The notes under the pieces: model-generated
What the model was told of the DNA's origin: nothing
Database searches by the model: none
Seen by the model: the letters and a program-made list of their open reading frames with translations, nothing else
Translations under genes and position numbers: made by a program
NCBI GenBank assembly: GCA_017499595.2
Contig: CM039009.1
Coordinates: forward strand, 1,116,001-1,180,000
Direction: 5' to 3'
Origin: Psilocybe cubensis
Lineage: Eukaryota
DNA length: 64,000 bases
Shown: positions 15,302 to 44,833 of the stretch, in pieces
Numbering within the stretch: the first letter of the stretch is position 1
Layout: each line of letters begins with the position of its first letter

Positions 15302-16420
15302 ATGCGCCTAATAACCATCTCAATTACTCTTGCTCTGCCCTTGCTCGCGAGCGCCCAGCGTTTCGTCAGGTTCATCTCGACGGACAACAAAGAGTACTAC
15401 GGCGACGCCATTCTTCCTTCCGACACAACCGATGCATCCAAAAGCAAGTCTGCGCGGGTGATCACAGGCGACATTCTTGGAGAGTTCACTATCACAAATC
15501 AAGCCAAAGTGCGTTCATATCTAATTCGTCAAAAATCCAATATTTGTTCGTGGAGGACGTGAATTCATCCGTTGAGATCATATAGACCATCAAAACCCTA
15601 CTCTCGCCTCTCCCAAACGAACGTGTGCGGACCGTCCGTTGTGTAGGCTTTAACTACGTTGCGCACAGCGAAGAGGTACGGCACCCCTGCCCTCTAATCC
15701 CCAAACTCTCCTTTTATCTGTTTTACACTTAGGCAGGGGTCTCAATACCCCAATGGCCAATTTTATTTTACAAGCCCTGGACTGCACTCAACACGCCCTC
15801 CGACCCGATCCCAGTCACCGCAGGCTACCAGACCCAAGGCAACTTCACCTCCGAGATGGACTACGAAACCGAGCTCGTGGTCGTAATCAAGAAAAAGGCT
15901 TTCAACATCTCGGATGATGAGGCGCTCAACCATGTACTGGGGTATTCGGTCGGACACGATGTGTCGCATCGTGGTTGGCAGATCGGTGAGTAGCAGAATT
16001 TGGACCCGCACTCCCATTGATTCAATTGAAATTATATCTTACTGCATACTTGAAGACCGCGGCGGACAACCGCAACCGCAATACTCAATGGGTAAAGGAG
16101 CAGACGGGTGGGCACCCTGGGGACCCGCCATTGTGTCAACCAATATCATTAAGGACCCTCAGACGTTGAACCTGTGGACCAAAGTCAACGGCGTAACGCA
16201 ACAGAACGACACCACTGCAAACATGATCTTCGGCGTGAAACATCTCGTCTCGTTCTTTTCGATGGGTACAACATTGTTGCCCGGGGACGTTATTTTTACG
16301 GGGACGCCAAGTGGTGTGCAGCTGGGTAAGGCGAACCCGAATTGGCTTAAGAATGGGGATGTGGTTGAAGTGGGGTTGGAAAATGTGGGCACTTGCACCA
16401 ATGCCATCAAGTACACATGA
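15302..16420 (+). CDS. Fumarylacetoacetate-hydrolase (FAH) superfamily protein with predicted signal peptide
   Basis: Spliced protein has RFVRF, LLSP, RCVGFNY, ILFYKP, DYETELVVVI, YSVGHDVS.R.WQ, MGKGADGWAPWGP, TLLPGDVIFTGTPSGV; N-terminus MRLITISITLALPLLASA|Q. Confidence 0.85.
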
Positions 16421-16570
16421 AAATCTTGCATCAATATGTCATGTTACGTGGTTGTTACACCTAAATTTTTATCACTTTTCCTTTTTGTTACTGGTAAAGA
16501 AACAAACATGGAAATTTTTAAATTCAAAAAGGATACAAACCAGGAAAGCGCAGGAAAATGAACAAAAAAA

Positions 16571-17770
16571 TCACCGAACTTCAACCTTTCTCCCCAACCA
16601 ATCCTCCCTCAATCTCGCCTCCACAAATTCATGCGTCTCCCTTGCTTTCTGTACCGCAACTTCCACCAGTCTGAGGATGTCGTCCGTACCAAGGGGTACA
16701 CCACCCAACTTTTGGAGAACACAGATTTCTTTTTGTGCGTTGAGTGCGATGGAGACGAGTCCCGCGCTGAGCCTCTGTTCTAGCTGAGATGGATCGAGAA
16801 CGGGCGGTGTAGAAGAAGAAGAAGATTCAGGGAAGAAGGCAAACGTGAAGCAGAAGGGCGTGTGGTGGATCGCGAGTGGGACGGGGGCGCGTTCCGTAGG
16901 TCGGTGCTGTATGTCGATGTGTCATAGATAGAGAAGAAACGGAAATGATTGATTAGCTGGCTGTACTCTTTCTCTCGAAGAACGGGGGTGCGTACAACGG
17001 TAACTTCGTCACCTACGACTTCAACGTCTGGGCGTCGGAAGTGTTTTAGAGCGACAATACCTGCGAGGCAAGCGCAGTCGAGGAGGTTCCCGGAGTCTGC
17101 CAAGAAGTGCAGTGTCAGTCTGATGTGCCAGACCTAAGCAAAGCGCGTTTATGATTGAAAGTAAATGATTTGAATTGAATATGGACGTACCCGTTGGCCG
17201 GCGAGGATACAAAGAGATTCTTTATCTAGGGCATCACTTCGCCTGAGAACTTTGTCGAGCATTCGTGTAATTGTAACTTCTTCATCCGAAGGCCTACATG
17301 GTTTTTGAAATAGAGAGCAGGAAAAAGGGAGTAGGGAGGTACAAAGAGAGATTGGGAAAATGGGATTGGAATCAAACGCGTCTGAAGTGACTCCATAAGA
17401 TCACATACCTACCGGCCTGGTTCATATTCGCTCGATGCCATAGGTGAGATCTCCGAGTGTATCGTCAAGATCCCTTCGAATGGGCGTTCTGGAAGAGGTT
17501 TCACCATTTTTGCATCGATCTGCGCGAGCACCCTACACATCACAGATCCATAACAGATAGACACTTGGTAAGTCATATTTTCATAATACAAAAAAGAAAA
17601 CAGACATACCGTGTTTTACCAAGGGCACACTCGACCCAACCAAGCTCTGAGCCAAACGTCAGGTTCGGAGTGCGCATTTCGAGCGGGAGGCGGCCATCTA
17701 TTCTAAGAGACTCTTTCAGCGCGCTGAAGAGGAACTCTTTTTCAGGTATCGATGGTGATGGAGGCCTCAT
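16571..17770 (-). CDS. RRP45: Exosome complex component Rrp45 (RNase PH family)
   Basis: MRPPSPSIPEKEFLFSALKESLRIDGR...ECALGKTR|VLAQIDAKMVKPLPERPFEG...RSDALDKESLCILAGQR|VW..RL..HFLADSGNLLDCACLAGIVALKHFRRPDV...LNAQKEICVLQKLGGVPL; stop at 16571. Confidence 0.92.
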
Positions 17771-19341: not shown

Positions 19342-21235
19342 TCAGACAGCAATGGTGTTCTTCAAGCCTTTGATGGACGGCGAGAAGAAGTATTCGCCTC
19401 CACGCGCCGTGATGAATGTAGGCATTGGGAGCACAGTCTGTTCTGCCAGAGGGTCGAGTCCGGACATCGCACGAGCTCCTTGGCCGATGAGTGGGTCCAA
19501 ACTATTCAGAAACATAAATCGTCAATCTTTTCATTCGTAGTAAATGATATAATGTATTGTCATGGACATACCCTGGATCTTCTGGTTGGGTCTCAAACGG
19601 CGGGAATTTCGGTGCGTTGGCCCAGGCTGCACATTTTCAAAATCAGATCAAATGGACATTCACTGCATTCGCTCAGCGGAACCTACATTGTTGGAGGAAC
19701 TGGAAGCCATTTGTCAAACTGCTTTGGTAGCATACGAAGAGTAACCCGCGTCCATGCAGCGTCTTGGACAGCTTCTGCTCATCCTGCGATACTTCTGGGC
19801 CAAATTGGATTCCTCGTCGCATGATGCGCCTGCCTTCGATGGGAATAGGTGGACGAGGTGCTGGCGGGACTTCTAGGTCGTTTCGTGGATTCGTCTTTCG
19901 GACGTGAGCAGCGAATGGACAGCGGAGCTGGGAGTTGATCTCTCCTTGGAAGAAGAAATTGTTGTTCCTGGGTTTGCGTCGACCATTAGTCGATGTCCTG
20001 TATCTAGGACATGGACGTTGCTTACCTGGTAGGATCAGCTCCAAGGGCAGGGTCATCTTTGAAAGGAGCAAGGTCAATTGGAGCACCTAAAGGTAGACCC
20101 AGCAATTCGTTTAGTCGTTTATTGCTCGTAATCTCGGTAGCTTGATCAACGTACCGCTCTTCCATCTGCCCACCATCCTCGCTCCCAGCAACTCGCTTCC
20201 TTGTTCTGGCGTTAACGCGTTCCCATTTCCGTCCTTTTTGACGGGATTCTTCTTCAAGAATTGGTTGAACTCGGGTACGCTCTGGAAGAGGTAGCGGAAG
20301 GCAAGGAAGCTACCGTCCGTCGCCCAGTCAGCGCGCGGGTTGGACGCGGGATCGCCTGGGTGTCCTGTGAGGATCACACCGGGCTGAACAACTTTGGGAC
20401 CTGGGTTGATGACCGTGTCGAAGCCGTCCACAACGGGGTTGGATATGCCGTCTTGGAAACCGAAACTGTTGAAAAATGAAATAGATTAATATCGACTTCA
20501 AGATCATCAATGCGACTGTTACTCACTGCTCATGGCCGTCTTCGTCGCCTGGTCGTACGTCGCCTCTGATAGTGGTGATTTCTTCAATGGACGCTGTGCT
20601 GGTACCTACTCTGAACAGCACGTCAATTTCATGCTTCTTCTTGTCGATGGATGTGTGGCTCTCTCCAGAAATTAGGATGAGCCCGTGGAGGTCACGCAAG
20701 AAGTCATCGTCCCAGTCAGGGTTGCCGTCGAGCTTGTTGGGGTCTCCGAGGTTGGTAACGGCATCTTTCTTCTGTCCAAGTGAGAAGGGGTCCGTTGGGC
20801 CGCCTTGGGCAAGAGTGCTGTCATCGACTCCGAGCTGTGCATTCGCCCAACATTAACAATATCTACCATCGTAGAGAGTCGAATCAAGCACTGACCTTGA
20901 CGAACCCTGTATGCGAAAATGAGATGTTTACGCCATCCATGGGCACAAGACCAGGCAACTTTTTCTTCTTGTGGTCGGCTATCGCATCGCGGTCTTTCAG
21001 GACCTGCGCGACTGTCTTGATGAGTGGGATGAACTTCTTCAAGTCAGCTTTGAACTTCGCGACATCAAGAATGGCGAAAAAGATGTAATATTGTGTCTTT
21101 TTAGGGAGGCCACTCCTGTAAATATAGGATACATTAAAAGTGAGCATTTGTCGCAAGGAAATGCAGAAATGGAGCTTACAAAACGTCACCCTGAATGTTG
21201 TTAAGATCTAGTGCAGGAGGTGGTGTGGTAGTCAT
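19342..21235 (-). CDS. DyP-type (dye-decolorizing) heme peroxidase, no signal peptide
   Basis: MTTTPPPALDLNNIQGDVL|SGLPKKTQ...GHEHFGFQDGISNP (GxxDG), DGSFLAFRYLFQSVPEF, GARMVGRWKSG, CPFAAHVRKTNPR (proximal His), IMRRGIQFGPE, RGLLFVCYQS, RGGEYFFSPSI; stop TGA at 19342. Confidence 0.93.
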
Positions 21236-23039: not shown

Positions 23040-24005
23040 ATGAAGATATCTACGCCTCTAGGCATTTTCTTTCTTGCACAATTTGCCTACGGCCATTGTA
23101 AGGAATTCCCTGGCAGCATCAATGGCCATTTTTTGACATGATCTGACATTGTAACATGCAATCAGATATCTTCGATACAATTTTATGGGACTCCCAAAGT
23201 TCGACTGCAGCCATTCGGAAACCGGCCGAGAATGCACCAGTTAAAAACTACACAGCATCGGAGATCACCTGTAACATCAATACATCGAAAGCTACCCAAA
23301 CCATCGCCATTGCCGCGGGCAGTATGATAACCATGGCGCTAGGAGAGAATAAAACCATTTATCATCCCGGACCGATGTCTATTTACCTGGGCAAGGCACC
23401 TGGAAAAGTTGTTGACTGGGATGGAACAGGAAAGCGATGGTTCAAGGTGCGCGTGACAGGTATTATATTCGCTGTGTTCCGCCTGATTGTTGGTACATTA
23501 GATTGCTGAATGGGGCCCAACTTTGAATCCATTTGGATTTAATAATATACTCGGAAAAAGTAAATTCACTGTAAAGATTCCTAAAGAGGTCCCTTCTGGA
23601 GAGGTAGGTATTTTAAATTTTTCAGAGAACTTCGTCTCAATAATTTCCTCTCAAGTACCTGGTCCGGACTGAGCAGATCGCGCAGCACATTCCGGGTTAT
23701 CCTGAGTTCTTTGTGTCCTGTGCACAGCTCAAGATTACCGGAGGAGGTACAGGGAGTCCATCAAAAGTTTCGATTCCAGGCCATCTCTCTAGAAAAAATG
23801 GTCTGTTCCTGTCTCCTTTGCCCAGTAAACTTAATTCGTTGAACTGGATATATGAATTCAGACCCCGACCTGTTTGTTGATATCTATTGGCCAGTACCCA
23901 AGAAATACAAGGCAAGGAAGAATTTTTACAAATTGGCATTTGATGGACTAACCGCGCATTTGTTAGGTTCCGGGTCCGCCCGTGTACCCAGGATTTTCGA
24001 AGTGA
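23040..24005 (+). CDS. AA9 lytic polysaccharide monooxygenase (catalytic domain only), 6 exons
   Basis: Signal peptide MKISTPLGIFFLAQFAYG, then mature N-terminal H-YIF; ITCN; IYHPGPMSIYLGKAP (second brace His); WDGTGKRWFK|I; IPKEVPSGE|YLVRTEQIAQH...PEFFVSCAQLKITGGG; Y.VPGPPVY; stop 24003-24005. Confidence 0.92.
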
Positions 24006-24494
24006 TACCACCTCTAAGTTGTCAAGTGTAAGTATACGACCCAACTCTAGTAGTAGACACTAGGCTGTAGATGCCAATAGAAACGCTGACGCCCGGCCTT
24101 CCTTTATATGCACCACTGACCAGGCGAAGTTCAGAGCCTGTACGGGGATGGAAGCACGTGCTACTAGCTCTGATGAGGCTGCCTCGCGGCTAACGCATGT
24201 TTTCCATGATGCAAGATTTACCCTGAGAGACATGATAAGAGCACATTAGATTTAGCTGAAACGCTTAGATTGTGGGATAGCTTGAACACGAAAAAACGAG
24301 TGAACTTGAGGTTTGCATGAGGTAGACACTCACCTAGGTGGCTGACTGCTTTTTTTTGTACTTTAACGAGCTCGTGTAAGACAATCACACACTTCCGATT
24401 ACTTGCATCGCCCAACCACCTACCACCAACACGACAGATTTCGTGTGCGGGTTCCACATAGCGATATCTCCCCCTTCTTTATTACGTTTTAATC

Positions 24495-25958
24495 TTGCTG
24501 CTTGCCATGAATACGACGCAGCTGGAACTACCCGCAGGCAGGGTTGGCTTCGTTCAATTCGCACAGTCTGTCTTAGACTCTGACGTCGGACGGTCGCGTT
24601 CCCACTCAGCTGGACTGTTATATCTCCTTCCGACTTGTTTAATGTTGATTGTAGTCGACGCTATTGCGAAACATTCAAATCGCCAAGCGGAAATAGCCAG
24701 TAAACATCAATCCGCCAAGGATAAGGAAGAAATCCAAAGGCTGACAACCCGGTTCCACGAATCTTTGCTCAAAATCGAGGAGCTCGACAGGACTTTTCAG
24801 TCTGAGCAGGTCTACTCTCAGCATCTTTCCCGCTCCCTCCAGAAGCGGAAGAATTTTGCCCGTCATCGCGTACGCATGCAGGTGTACGCGGCTCAGCATG
24901 ACACAGAATCAGACTCGCCGCCCCGCTACACCGCCGAAACGAGACCACCCACTGAAGCTCCCGCGCGCGCAGTCAGTGCTCCCTTTACCGACTTCTGCGA
25001 AAAATTGCTGTACCAGAATAAGATATGGAAGCAGCAGCGGGAAATCAAGAATCTTCAGATCGCTCTTTGCGAGATCAAGGCATCCAACGCTGATAACGCC
25101 TTCAAGGCGTTTTGCGATAGGCTACTCCTGTCAAATAAAATCTGGAAGCAGCAGAAGGAGATTAATAGCCTGATGGCGGAGGCGGAATCGCTGAAGAAAT
25201 CGCGGGCAGCAGCCGTTGCCCATGCAGCACAACAAATGGCGGACGAAGTGACGAAGGAGAGGTTGACGGAGGAGTACGTGAAGGATCTTATCGCGGAAGT
25301 AGGAGAGTGCAAACAGGCTATTTGCACGCTTCGTGTTGAACACGAAGAAGAGATGAGGGAGCTGGCCAACCTCTATCGCAAGGATTATCTCAGAATGGCT
25401 AAAGAAATCGAACGGTTGAAGTTGAGCCTGGAATCCCGTATAGTGGAACAGGAGCTTTCAAATCGTGTGGAGGACGAACTCGTTGAACGCCTCGCTCACC
25501 TGGAAGAACACGACATTACACTCGTCGGAGAATCAGGTCTTGAATCCCCAAACTCCTATGCCGATTACTACACGGACGACACACTTTCCGAGTCCGAGCT
25601 GGAGAACATGTCGAACATGTCGACGTCTACCTGCGTTGGTTCAGGAGGCGAACGTTCACGAAAATCTTCGTTCGAGCAAGGACCAGAAGCTAAGCCTGCA
25701 CCCCAGACCCCAGTGAGGGTAAGGTTGTCATCTCTCAACCTGAAGTTGGTCTTGCGCGAACCTCCTTCGTCGTCGACAAGCACGCCGTTGTCGAAATCGC
25801 CTACCCCAAGGATGGATGAGAGCTCCTATGTTGGATTTTCATTCAACCCATTGTTTTTCGGAGGCGATGCGCAAAGTGATTCGCGAAAACACGTAGGCCC
25901 TATTTCAAAGGCGGATTTCGTTGCACAACAAACAAAGCGTGCTCAATGGAGGATGTGA
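24495..25958 (+). CDS. Uncharacterised coiled-coil protein with an internally repeated FC(E/D)xLLxxNKIWKQQxEI motif
   Basis: Long ORF with heptad-rich E/K/L/R composition and a Ser/Pro-rich tail. The true 5' end is uncertain (probable short upstream exons). Confidence 0.7.
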   Translation: MLLAMNTTQLELPAGRVGFVQFAQSVLDSDVGRSRSHSAGLLYLLPTCLMLIVVDAIAKHSNRQAEIASKHQSAKDKEEIQRLTTRFHESLLKIEELDRTFQSEQVYSQHLSRSLQKRKNFARHRVRMQVYAAQHDTESDSPPRYTAETRPPTEAPARAVSAPFTDFCEKLLYQNKIWKQQREIKNLQIALCEIKASNADNAFKAFCDRLLLSNKIWKQQKEINSLMAEAESLKKSRAAAVAHAAQQMADEVTKERLTEEYVKDLIAEVGECKQAICTLRVEHEEEMRELANLYRKDYLRMAKEIERLKLSLESRIVEQELSNRVEDELVERLAHLEEHDITLVGESGLESPNSYADYYTDDTLSESELENMSNMSTSTCVGSGGERSRKSSFEQGPEAKPAPQTPVRVRLSSLNLKLVLREPPSSSTSTPLSKSPTPRMDESSYVGFSFNPLFFGGDAQSDSRKHVGPISKADFVAQQTKRAQWRM

Positions 25959-26681: not shown

Positions 26682-27979
26682 ATGACCTGCCAGTGTCCCA
26701 TCTGCTTTGAAGAGATCTCCGACGGTGCCCATTCTCTGCCCTGCGGTGAGTTTTGCTACTTTCTCAATCTCTGATGAAGCTGATTCAGCCAATTGATTAT
26801 CAGGCCACATTTTTTGTACTGGCTGCGTTGAAAGCCTTGCAGGTAGCGCAAGAACAAGAAGCGGCCAGGTCAGCTGTCCATCATGCCGCCGTCTATACGT
26901 TCCTAGTAAGTGTGAAAGCCATCCTATCGAAAGCCTCTACGCTTGGTTTTGGATCTCATCGATCAAAACAGGAATGTCTGCGGAGGTGGTTCGAAGGGTC
27001 TTCTTGAATAGCAACAACCCGTCCGATTCTTCTAACACCGTACATTCTGATACCTCATCGACGTCTAGACCGATTGTTGCTAATGACGCAGAGGTTACCC
27101 TACTTCGTGAGCAATTAAACACTGCACAGAGGCAGAGGGCGGAAGCGGCTGCCGAAACCAACAGATTAAATGACGTCCTTGCAACAACCAGAAGGGAATC
27201 AATGTCAAAGTCGAACGAAATCAACAGTTTGAAACAGCAACTGCGAGATAATGCTTATGCTTTAGAACAATCCCTGAACAGTCACACTTCCTACAGAGCA
27301 TCTGCACAAGGAATCTTTGAGAGTTTTCAAAACGAAAATAACAGACTGAAAAACGAAATAATGGAATTAAAAGCCGAGCTTCGTGTCGCAAACTCCCAGT
27401 ATGTGTTGTCATTAATATCCAGCTTAGCATTAGTTGATCATCTATCTTTGTCTTCAGTATCCAGGCTAGTCGGGGAAGGTCAGTGCAATTTCTTTACATG
27501 GGTCTCTTATATACTGGCACTAATTTTGGAGGAACTTCCCGTGCGTCTCAAGGGATCCAGCAGCGTCTACCGCTGCACAATCTACCCTTGGTTCTTCGTC
27601 ATCCAGTATACCTGATGAGCCTCCTTCGGCTCGTGTCCAATCTCAGCAAACTGCCAGAATACCGAGTGCCCTCAATGGACGCGTCATTAGAACCGGCAAC
27701 ATATCCAACACTAATACCTCCTTGTTAGCGCCAGCTGTTTCCCCAGTTTCTACAGTGCCCCATCCCGCTCCTGCACAAGCACAAGCTCCAAGGCCACGCG
27801 CGCTGAAGCGTGGGGCAGATATATTGTGCAGAGGCTACAGACGTCCACAACAGACAGCCGTACCAGAATGTACTTCAGCAGACGGATATCACAATTTTAG
27901 TGGCAAAGGAAGCAATCAGTACGCAGCAAAGTATACCTGCACGGAATGCCATTTTAGATGCTCCGAAAGCAGGCGGTGA
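26682..27979 (+). CDS. RING-A: RING-HC (C3HC4) + coiled coil + C-terminal C-x6-H-x15-C-x2-C module; putative E3 ligase
   Basis: Spliced MTCQCPICFEEISDGAHSLPCG|HIFCTGCVESLAGSARTRSGQVSCPSCRRLYVP|..VRRVFL, coiled coil, Ser/Pro linker, ECTSADGYHNFSGKGSNQYAAKYTCTECHFRCSESRR*. Confidence 0.85.
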
Positions 27980-42093: not shown

Positions 42094-44833
42094 TCAAACA
42101 TCAAAGCTGCTACTCTGCCAACCCTGCCTGTTGAGTTCGACCTGCTTCTTCCTCTCGACACTCCTCCTGAAACCTTTGACCTGCCTCTCACCCTCCTTAT
42201 ACAGCCCCTGCGCCCTCTCCTGCACATCCTTGGCCAACTGGCCCGCCTGCCTCTTCACACCCCGCACATCAACCTCTGGAACATCAACATCCATCTCCTC
42301 CGCCCTCCTCTCCAACTTGTCCACAATCCTCTCCGACCCACTCCCTACAGGCCCGCGCTTTGCCCCGTCCAAAATCTGTGGCTCAGCACCCATGGCCAAC
42401 ATTGACCTGCGCACCTCCTGGCCCTCGCCAAACTCATCTCCTGTGCCCTCCACACGCACGCTCTGCTCGACAACCAGACCCGTTCCCGTGGCATGCCACC
42501 CCATCTCCACCGGCCCCTCCCTGCTCTCGCGCTCCAGCCGCCCAATCTCGCTCCATACGGCAGCCATAAGCGACCCGCCGCCTCCAAGCCCTGTATCCTC
42601 AAACACCTCCCTGCGCCTGCCCACATCGAACGCTACACCGTCCGCCCAATCCACAATAGCCCGAATCTGCTCCGTCAGCGTCTTCTCCAGCGCCTGCCGC
42701 ATCTTCGCGACCATCATCGGTTTGAAGACCGTCACGAGCACCGAGTGGTTGGAATCCCTGATATCGATCCCTACGTCTTCAGCGATCGACACCGACGCGC
42801 TCTCAATGACGTTAAAGTGCTTGCGCGCCGCGCGCGAGTGCGAGCCTGTCGCGTTCGCAGGGATAAGCCGGATCTTGAGGTCCACATCGATCCCTTTCTC
42901 CGGCAGCTTCAGGCCTAGAAGACCGGTAAACTCGGAGGGGCCGATGGCGGACGCCGTTTTGTCTTTGTACCAGAACGAGACGTCTTTGAGCGAGAGTTGC
43001 AGTGCTTGGATGCGTACGTGCGTTAGCGCGCCGACGTTGGTGTGAGAAGGAGTGGATGGTTTCGCAGACGTTTGGATGTCGATGTCGGTGATGTTGCGAA
43101 TGTATACATGCGACGGCAAGATGTTGAATGTTGAGATATCGAGGTTCTCGAGCACAAACTCGATCTCATCGTCCTTGTATTCCGTTCTATATCAAAGTAA
43201 GCACCTTTCAAATTCAGCATGGTAAACCACTAACCTTGGGATAGGAACGTCCTTCATCTTTGACAAGAACTTTGGAATATAATACTTGAACAGGTCCTGC
43301 CAGAACCACGTCGCCTGCTCAATCGCAGCCTGCACACCCGTCTTCGCCTCCTCGCTCGCATCAACGAGTCCCCTCTCAATATCCGCGCCCAGCTTAGCAT
43401 GCGCCTCCTTGAGCCTATTCAGGTCCTCGTCGTTCTCCATGCCACTTTGCACGTTGTTCAACTCCTTCTTCAAATCATCGACGACCATCTTCCATTTACC
43501 CGACGAGTCCTTGTCCAGAAGTGCCTTCCACCTCGAGCGCAGTTCCTGGCGTTTCGCCTCGGCCTCATCAGAACGCGCGTACCCCGGATCCGCAAGATTC
43601 TTCCGCGACACAGAGAGAAAGTCGTCGAACCACGCCTTGAGCTCGGGGTCTTGCAAGATTGTATATGCAGCCGTGCGGAATTTCTGGATCAGCGGCTCAA
43701 GCGAGGTGTTTGCCAGGCGCTCGACGAGCGTGCGGAGCAGGTTGAGAGCCTTGGGAATGTGCTGCTCGGGTGTCGGGTCAGAGACGAAGCTGGAGAGTGT
43801 GGTGTTGGGATCGGATGCCGCGTCAATGGTGCTGTTGAGCCGCTTCTGCACGATGTCGAAGAGCGTGTCGAGGGATTGGCGGTACTCGGGATCGTTCTTT
43901 GCACGGTCGCTGACCTACAGAGCGCCACATTAACAAACCAATTTACATGCCCCAAAAAGATTGAAAGAAATTACCTTGTAGAATGTCTCACGAAGCCTCG
44001 AACCAGTCTTCTCCTTCTTCTCCTCAATCGCCTGGGTAGTACTTTGCACCGTACCAATGACAGTGGACCCTGTATCCTTAACGACATCCATCCCATGCTC
44101 CCACCGGACCTTGGCGCCTCCCTCCCGCTCCTCCTCCATCCTTTTCTTCTCCCGCCCCAGCGCATCCCGCTTGCCCTCGCGCACCTCCTCTTCCACACTG
44201 CGGATCGCGGCCTTTGCGGACCCAGCCTGCCCCTCGACGAGCTCCGCGGCGTCTGCGAGCGAGAGCCGGATGAGCGAGAGGATGTCCTCGCCCAGCGACG
44301 TGCCCTCGGAGGAGAGAGAGGACCAGAGCGTGGTGAGCAGTGTGCGGAGAGCACGGCGGATGGCAGAGATGTCGTTTAGCGCGTCGTCTTTGGTTTGTTG
44401 CGCCTCGGGTGTGGATGTGAGATCGCCCTGCGTGAGGTGGTGAAGGGCTTGTTGGAGGACGTTGTCCCCTGAATTGACATCGTCGTCAGTAAATGTTTCG
44501 TTTAGGACGTGGGTAGATATCTGTATACGCACCGTTCTTGTTGATCCCCAGCTGCTTGTACGCATCGAGCACACCGCGTAGCCCGCTCGCGAGTACGCGG
44601 CCCTGTGCGCTCAGTGCATCCGCGTTGATGTTGGTATTAGCATTGACGTCGACGTTCTGCGACGCCGCGGCGGCGGAGACAGCTTCGTCGACTTCCTCTG
44701 CAGCTTTGGCGAGATTAGCATCGACCCGCGCGATACCGACGTCGCTCAGCCAGTCGATGAACACGTTAATCTGTTGTGTGGAGGGCAGCTTGCCGGCTTC
44801 GAGAGCGGCGAGGACGGAGGATGCTTTGTCCAT
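42094..44833 (-). CDS. DUF4449/DUF5923 (HAM1-like, BPI/TULIP-like) conserved fungal protein, 4 exons
   Basis: MDKASSVLAALEAGKLPSTQQI...KN|GDNVLQ...IPIPR-like VPIPR|IEYKDDEIEFVLENLDI...NILPSHVYIRN...SLKDVSFWYKDK; family assignment from motif memory. Confidence 0.75.

Follow-up and report, generated by a model that had tools for sequence, protein, structure and literature searches.

A probable natural Glu/Phe variant of the copper-site second sphere in an AA9 lytic polysaccharide monooxygenase gene of Psilocybe cubensis

Gene structure and public annotation

The stretch of DNA analysed here, hereafter the window, comprises 64,000 nucleotides of Psilocybe cubensis (GenBank assembly GCA_017499595.2, contig CM039009.1, positions 1,116,001 to 1,180,000 of the forward strand), and at 23040-24005 (+) it contains a gene for a lytic polysaccharide monooxygenase (LPMO) of family AA9 in which two copper-site positions, most often occupied by Gln and Tyr in related proteins, read Glu and Phe. 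The gene consists of six exons, with a coding sequence of 675 nt that specifies 224 amino acids and a single terminal stop; the spliced frame shows no internal stops and is intact, in agreement with the original prediction of an otherwise intact gene. Its parts, in positions of the window, are as follows.

23040-23097 (+), exon 1: start codon, 18-residue signal peptide (23040-23093), His1 codon CAT (23094-96) and first nucleotide of the Tyr20 codon, which intron 1 interrupts
23098-23165 (+), intron 1: 68 nt, GT...AG
23166-23446 (+), exon 2: residues 20-113, with Cys55 (TGT 23270-72) and, in HPGP, His86 (CAT 23363-65), the second histidine of the brace
23447-23501 (+), intron 2: 55 nt, GT...AG
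23502-23603 (+), exon 3: residues 114-147, continuous with orthologs in alignments
23604-23655 (+), intron 3: 52 nt, GT...AG
23656-23800 (+), exon 4: residues 148-196, with second-sphere His158 (CAC 23686-88), Glu164 (GAG 23704-06), Phe165, Phe166 (TTT 23710-12) and Cys169 (TGT 23719-21)
23801-23861 (+), intron 4: 61 nt, GT...AG
23862-23911 (+), exon 5: gap-free against orthologs
23912-23966 (+), intron 5: 55 nt, unusual GC donor (GCAAGG), CTAAC branch site, AG acceptor
23967-24005 (+), exon 6: stop codon TGA

The interval 23656-23730 (+), which forms the beginning of exon 4, was translated in one frame as YLVRTEQIAQHIPGYPEFFVSCAQL, and this translation bears out the Glu and Phe codons on which the original prediction was built. 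The gene model aligns end to end with a Hebeloma protein (P0004; 66.2% identity across 216/216 columns), and likewise shows 64.9% identity with an Agrocybe pediades ortholog (P0002; 222 columns) and 60.5% with a Pholiota one (P0005; 223 columns). At the junction created by removal of intron 5, orthologs run on gap-free as ...Y-x-VPGPPVY.

Exon 2 is 100% identical to the P. cubensis NCBI protein P0001, annotated as 'putative endo-beta-1,4-glucanase D'. This public protein of 235 aa begins at an ATG within intron 1, hence lacking exon 1, the signal peptide and His1, and keeps intron 5 as coding sequence, so that it runs on into a C-terminal tail of unrelated sequence. On the contrary, the ortholog P0002 starts with a signal peptide followed by HYIFDT and ends in ...PVPTSYTVPGPPVY, both features agreeing with the six-exon model. 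Orthologs thus back the six-exon model at either end and contradict the public one, which is judged to be in error there. The His1 of the window protein depends on exon 1 of the model here presented, the exon omitted in P0001, and a protein expressed from the database sequence would be dead, its catalytic His1 having been removed.

Copper-site residues in an AA9 scaffold

The pieces encoded by exons 2 and 4 matched the Pfam AA9 family (PF03443) with E=4.5e-15 (56.5 bits) and E=1e-10 (42.3 bits), respectively, the cut-off of the family being 27.8 bits, while the 34-aa piece of exon 3 alone gave no match; the AA9 assignment was confirmed when the open reading frames around the gene were scanned (see below). 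No match to the AA10 Pfam family appeared in the scans of the gene pieces. Both histidines of the copper brace are present, as originally predicted: His19, which follows the 18-residue signal peptide and is contributed by exon 1 of the six-exon model, and His86 in HPGP, which fits the spacing of about 65-85 residues between the two in AA9s. This intact brace sets the protein apart from LPMO-like proteins without a full brace, such as those of Arg-AA9 and X325 type. The second-sphere His158 is also present, together with Cys55 and Cys169; neither cysteine varies across the family alignment (A1), and in AA9 structures this pair forms a disulfide.

The fold was evaluated on the ortholog P0002, rather than on the window protein, by means of an AlphaFold2 model with a 64-row alignment as input (mean predicted local distance difference test 90.3, predicted template modelling score 0.85). 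In this model, residues 163-174 (E-F-F-V-S-C-A-Q...) form one strand that opens with E163-F-F165. When compared with the PDB by Foldseek, the best matches were 8b7p (target-normalised template modelling score, TM, of 0.89; root-mean-square deviation 1.5), 4qi8 (0.88) and 3eii (0.88), and ranks 1-40 were all occupied by AA9s, with AA11 chains at ~0.5 and AA10 chains at 0.41-0.48 (target-normalised). The ortholog is therefore predicted to adopt the immunoglobulin-like beta-sandwich that is characteristic of AA9.

Equivalence of the two residues was addressed with sequences of solved structures. Searching PDB sequences with exon 4 (phmmer) returned, at E<=1, 24 distinct sequences, including an unrelated adhesin without a significant stretch. 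E-F-F falls on Q-F-Y in all five alignments displayed (5ufv, 3eii, 4b5q, 7exk and 4d7u), each of them gap-free from the motif to Cys-Ala-Gln and with a deletion of 3-4 residues immediately upstream. The ortholog P0002 gave the identical equivalence with 8b7p, 4qi8 and 3eii (3/3), its HPGP aligning to the HPGP of these three structures and its His19 to residue 1 of the mature chain of 8b7p. By these alignments, Glu164 is assigned to the second-sphere Gln position and Phe166 to that of the axial Tyr, consistent with the equivalence originally proposed. The Tyr of a G-Y-P motif was also considered as a substitute axial ligand and is unlikely to act as such: it precedes the strand and occurs in only 3/20 members of the Agaricales group described below, the remaining members showing Pro, Ser, Val, Met, Lys, Leu or Gln in that column.

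The Q-x-Y before Cys-Ala-Gln that is typical of AA9, without defining it, is thus replaced by E-F-F. This is a variant state and not an exclusion from the family, since CAZy and Pfam membership rests on sequence. The second-sphere triad is His-Glu-Phe, which combines an AA9 scaffold, the AA9 histidine and Tyr85 with the Glu-x-Phe strand of those AA10s whose triad is Arg-Glu-Phe (REF).

In passages of PMC10472438, Gln or Glu is stated to be conserved in >96% of AA9, AA10 and AA11 sequences, AA9s are given as His-Gln-Tyr (HQY), and Glu-Tyr is associated with raised, Glu-Phe with low oxidase activity. Tyr occurs in every structurally characterised AA9 according to a 2016 review, in which the Gln is described as hydrogen-bonded to it (PMC5094447); an excerpt of PMC4144037 describes AA9 as 'primarily tyrosine' with 'relatively few exceptions', and AA9 is still described as a Tyr family in passages of two papers from 2026 (PMC13726380 and PMC13353379). 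In the literature searched, subscription-only papers being outside its scope, no description or characterisation of a natural Glu/Phe AA9 was found.

Canonical HQY compact AA9s, namely AnLPMOC (8b7p), NcLPMO9F (4qi8), TtGH61E (3eii) and PcGH61D (4b5q), belong to the same Pfam family and fold, the P0002 model superimposing on them with target-normalised TM of 0.84-0.89 at 37-43% identity. They share with the window protein the N-terminal His after a signal peptide, the HPGP, the second-sphere His, the Cys pair and a C-terminal PGP motif. Differences lie in the Glu for Gln and the Phe for axial Tyr of the window protein, as well as in its His-to-motif loop, shorter by 3-4 residues.

Cellulose-active AA10s are either HQY or REF (PMC11137697). 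Among them, ScAA10C (4oy7) resembles the window protein in having Glu and Phe two residues apart on one strand, at the backbone location of the AA9 Gln/Tyr (PMC10472438, PMC11137697), the Glu being placed differently in chitin-active SmAA10A (PMC10472438). It nevertheless belongs to another family with a distant fold (target-normalised TM 0.41, 13% identity). Since the cellulose-active ScAA10C carries Glu/Phe, the original association of this pair with chitin-active AA10s is too narrow, the pair not being specific to them (PMC10472438). Furthermore, REF AA10s show Arg at position 1 and, as noted in PMC5094447, Ala before the second His, where the window protein has His158 and Tyr85 (preceding His86). 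Accordingly, the AA10-like copper site of the original prediction holds at positions 2 and 3, where Glu164 and Phe166 sit on the same strand, and fails elsewhere; because the AA9 His158 is kept and both the AA10 Arg and Ala are absent, the site is better called a hybrid than an AA10 site. AA11 enzymes (Glu-Tyr, chitin-active), as described in the same body of work, have a Glu at the equivalent backbone position, but keep the Tyr and, in the case of AfAA11B, show Asn for the second-sphere His; in the Foldseek comparison their fold match reached only ~0.5 TM.

Occurrence and descent of the Glu/Phe pair

The Agrocybe pediades ortholog, about 65% identical, carries PEFFVSCAQ, the same motif as in the window. 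A search with it retained 234 of 525 candidates as relatives, and an alignment of the best 120 of these 234 with the gene model (121 rows) was examined. The two positions read Gln/Tyr in 100 rows and Glu/Phe in 18, the remainder being 2 rows with Glu/Tyr and 1 with Gln/Phe. Two of the Glu/Phe rows, P0001 and the gene model, are one gene, leaving 16 further proteins among the best 120 of 234. Carriers include Agrocybe pediades, Hebeloma cylindrosporum, Pholiota conissans, Coprinopsis cinerea (CC1G_02693), Coprinopsis marcescibilis, Leucocoprinus leucothites, Hypholoma sublateritium, Collybia nuda, Hypsizygus marmoreus, Lyophyllum atratum and Laccaria bicolor. P. cubensis also encodes a canonical Gln/Tyr paralogue, P0025, that is 53% identical to the Glu/Phe gene. 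The literature search returned no paper on CC1G_02693 and nothing relevant on P. cubensis and AA9, and for Laccaria it gave general statements only, on the induction of AA9 genes during symbiosis.

When 1.84 billion cluster representatives (50% identity) were searched exhaustively with HMMER, 2631 relatives emerged at E<=0.001, of which the best 150 were scored. Gln/Tyr was the commonest pair (88/150), followed by Glu/Tyr (25), Glu/Phe (11) and Gln/Phe (6), with 10 representatives showing other pairs and 10 gapped at the two positions; Gln/Tyr is hence absent in 62/150, including the 10 merely gapped there, in a sample that is centred on a Glu/Phe query rather than being a family census and in which some odd rows are fragments of doubtful alignment. 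The original statement that fungal AA9s almost always have Gln and Tyr is right as to the commonest state and too strong as to the rest. The textbook notion that AA9 means Tyr plus Gln conceals sizeable Glu/Tyr and Glu/Phe minorities. A search for longer proteins with exon 4 only was also tried as a census of E-F-F and proved useless for this purpose, giving 14 candidates and 7 matches: P0001 and six Ceratobasidium proteins, all six with Q-W-Y.

By sequence comparison, the Glu/Phe pair is a natural AA9 variant and not a private defect or decay; orthologs in other genera keep it, and on this point the original prediction is upheld. A first tree was obtained with FastTree for 222 of 269 rows, the 47 dropped being the duplicate P0001 and 46 partial sequences. 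The window gene lies in a set of four Glu/Phe rows (support 99), and in a larger Agaricales set of 20 rows, 17 Glu/Phe and 3 Glu/Tyr (support 97). Seven further Glu/Phe rows, some of them from unrelated fungi, appear elsewhere on the tree (Mycena floridula, Sphaerobolus stellatus, Cyathus striatus, Penicillium expansum, Aspergillus avenaceus, an Apiospora species and Orbilia oligospora), and supported branches force at least 7 state changes. This scatter, together with the forced changes, indicates that the state arose more than once.

Because the motif itself could draw the group together, a second tree was built with the four motif columns removed and 97 of the 222 rows (20 of the group, 45 near and 32 far). 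The IQ-TREE quick search retained the 4-row set (96), as well as a set of 10 rows with 8 Glu/Phe and 2 Glu/Tyr (96).

Within the group of 20, the copper site is highly conserved: His1 is found in 18/20 (one gap and one Arg, that of P0121), His2 in 20/20, the second-sphere His in 19/20, the Cys pair in 20/20, Glu in 20/20 and Phe in 17/20. When compared with 165 Gln/Tyr rows, the only group-specific columns at the thresholds applied are 164 (Glu 20/20), 166 (Phe 17/20) and 167 (Val 15/20). Since brace and Glu/Phe are kept at only 50-66% overall identity, this pattern is that of a selected working site and not of decay.

The Glu/Tyr members of the group are Cyclocybe aegerita P0011, Termitomyces P0117 and Crepidotus P0121, and Glu/Tyr may be an intermediate state. 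P0121 (Crepidotus variabilis, 448 aa), with its Arg at the His1 column, could reflect either a gene-model error or an AA9 without N-terminal His.

Proposed function, alternatives and genomic surroundings

The gene is best explained as a functional, secreted, single-domain AA9 of an Agaricales-wide His-Glu-Phe lineage, with a copper-brace mechanism that would lean towards peroxygenase action, a reading to which we attribute a probability of about 0.55. In such an enzyme copper would still be held by the histidine brace. Phe166 would remove the Tyr hydroxyl below the copper, a weak axial ligand and redox-active relay, along with the hydrogen bond that links this hydroxyl to the residue two positions before it, while the Glu164 carboxylate would replace the Gln amide that normally orients H2O2 and oxygen intermediates. 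By analogy with engineered variants, the pair would be expected to give low O2 reduction, and with it low oxidase activity and little self-made H2O2, whereas H2O2-driven (peroxygenase) cleavage would be retained, making the enzyme dependent on external H2O2.

The analogy comes from variants in which the very same positions were changed. The double mutant Q219E/Y221F of MaAA10B has the exact His-Glu-Phe triad of the window protein (HEF) and shows lower oxidase activity, on the contrary to the HEY mutant, with about five times more; the authors stress that the residues of the second sphere are tightly linked to one another (PMC11137697). In NcAA9C Q164E and MtPMO9E Y168F (9bjr), the positions altered and the residues introduced are those of the window protein, and for Y168F less H2O2 and less activity with O2 are reported, activity with H2O2 equalling that of the wild type and the structure being otherwise unchanged (PMC11725913). 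Taken together, these studies suggest weak O2 reactivity with retained H2O2-driven activity, and make the different substrate or peroxygenase behaviour of the original prediction plausible. As for the substrate, 4qi8, 3eii and 4b5q, among the nearest structures, are C1-oxidising, cellulose-active AA9s, and a beta-1,4-glucan such as cellulose would be the default guess.

Such variants (NcAA9C Q164E, MtPMO9E Y168F and the steps of MaAA10B from HQY toward REF) have been made in the LPMO field with regard to O2/H2O2 balance and self-inactivation. However, they are laboratory mutants of HQY-tuned enzymes, mostly crippled in stability or activity, and their effects may be intrinsic or may reflect broken tuning. 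The window sequence, on the contrary, is natural and kept across species, and the rest of the protein may compensate for Glu and Phe. A natural His-Glu-Phe lineage, with three columns distinguishing it from His-Gln-Tyr neighbours, offers a clean comparison already tested by evolution.

Several observations weigh against the proposed explanation. The structural model is that of the ortholog P0002 and not of the window protein; intron 5 requires a rare GC donor, its splicing being deduced from ortholog homology only; and mutant effects observed on other scaffolds may not be transferable. Exchange of Tyr for Phe impaired TtAA9E activity (PMC5094447), so that Glu/Phe could simply weaken an AA9. 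Regarding descent, the free search without motif columns split the 20 rows into two tens with unsupported branches between them. The tree constrained to hold all 20 together lies nonetheless 29.6 log-likelihood units above the free quick search and is not rejected (p-AU 0.708), which suggests one Agaricales-wide lineage as the better, though not proven, reading. Regarding coupling, Phe is found in 24/47 Glu rows versus 6/174 Gln rows of the 222 (Fisher p=6e-14, a value inflated by relatedness), but in a tree-aware evaluation no more than 5 pairs on supported branches are independent, and the sign test gives a median p of 0.5. Across these pairs, Phe goes in the same direction in 2.2 on average and in the opposite one in 0.1, and coupling of Glu and Phe is accordingly no more than suggested.

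Among the alternatives, Glu/Phe might mark a change of substrate or role, the enzyme acting on chitin or beta-glucan of the fungus's own wall or on some polymer other than cellulose, as might be the case during development or symbiosis. Chitin-active AA11s have Glu here as their prevalent state, and Glu/Phe occurs in many AA10s (PMC11137697, PMC10472438, PMC5094447). Two ectomycorrhizal fungi, Laccaria bicolor and Hebeloma cylindrosporum, belong to the Agaricales group; a contraction of the AA9 set is reported for mycorrhizal species, and for some AA9 genes of Agaricomycetes, regulated during development, a part in the remodelling of fungal walls has been proposed (PMC10282164). In Cryptococcus, the AA9 CnCel1 is required for wall integrity and is inactive on usual substrates, but it keeps the Tyr, hence providing no precedent for Glu/Phe (PMC10166503). 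Beyond columns 164, 166 and 167 none separates the group from its canonical neighbours, with no surface change indicative of a new substrate being seen. The nearest structures, moreover, are the AA9s taken above to be cellulose-active. A change of substrate or role appears on balance unlikely.

It could also be argued that this AA9 has been weakened or is not catalytic, being either a copper-binding, repurposed LPMO-like protein or a paralogue drifting to loss of function. Lowered activity is indeed common to the Tyr-to-Phe variant of TtAA9E (PMC5094447) and to the HEF variant of MaAA10B (PMC11137697), LPMO-like non-enzymes such as X325/Bim1 are known (PMC10166503), and two group members deviate at key columns, P0121 with Arg for His1 and P0011 with Gln for the second-sphere His. 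Nonetheless, drift would not preserve brace and pair at 50-66% identity in the proportions given above (His1 18/20, His2 20/20, Glu 20/20, Phe 17/20), the frame is intact, and Glu/Phe is a working combination of active AA10 LPMOs (PMC10472438, PMC11137697). We consider this explanation improbable.

Finally, an artefact, in the form of assembly base errors or of a gene model laid over a pseudogene, might be supposed because each residue lies one base from the canonical codon (GAG versus CAG, TTT versus TAT), the public annotation errs at either end of the gene and intron 5 needs its GC donor, but it is extremely improbable, as two independent errors would be needed, P0001 has identical residues, 16 further Glu/Phe proteins stand among the best 120 of 234 relatives, and the spliced frame is stop-free and matches orthologs end to end.

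The surroundings of the gene were explored by Pfam scans of the long open reading frames of the whole window and of all those of >=65 residues at 16-31 kb. In these scans no second carbohydrate-active enzyme and no H2O2-producing oxidase was found near the AA9 gene. The nearest upstream gene, 19676-21207 (-), encodes a DyP-type haem peroxidase and is divergent from the AA9 gene, with the following domain matches.

20887-21207 (-), DyP_N, E=1.4e-21
20526-20852 (-), DyP_N, E=1.6e-16
19676-20086 (-), Dyp_perox_C, E=1.2e-5

The starts of both genes are ~1.8 kb apart. An H2O2-consuming enzyme beside an LPMO may be a coincidence, or the 1.8 kb between them may be a shared divergent promoter region that serves a local peroxide economy. 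Carrying the preferred reading further, the His-Glu-Phe AA9s of Agaricales could be envisaged as a functionally separate subclass of near-obligate peroxygenases, barely reactive with O2, fed with external or partner-derived H2O2 and devoted to a role other than bulk cellulose (e.g., remodelling of fungal or host walls), which would be kept even in ectomycorrhizal species and whose gene in P. cubensis possibly shares a promoter region with the DyP gene; we regard this extension as doubtful.

Two open reading frames follow downstream of the AA9 gene.

24462-25958 (+), 498 aa, without Pfam match
26797-27615 (+), with only weak, below-cut-off matches of coiled-coil type (ATG16 and Fib_alpha)

With no evident tie to the AA9 gene, Pfam matches at 42094-43914 (-), 55753-56532 (+), 60000-60560 (+) and 15887-17133 correspond to genes for a HAM1-like protein, a fungal-specific transcription factor domain, DUF455, a member of the fumarylacetoacetate hydrolase family and an RNase PH-type exosome subunit.

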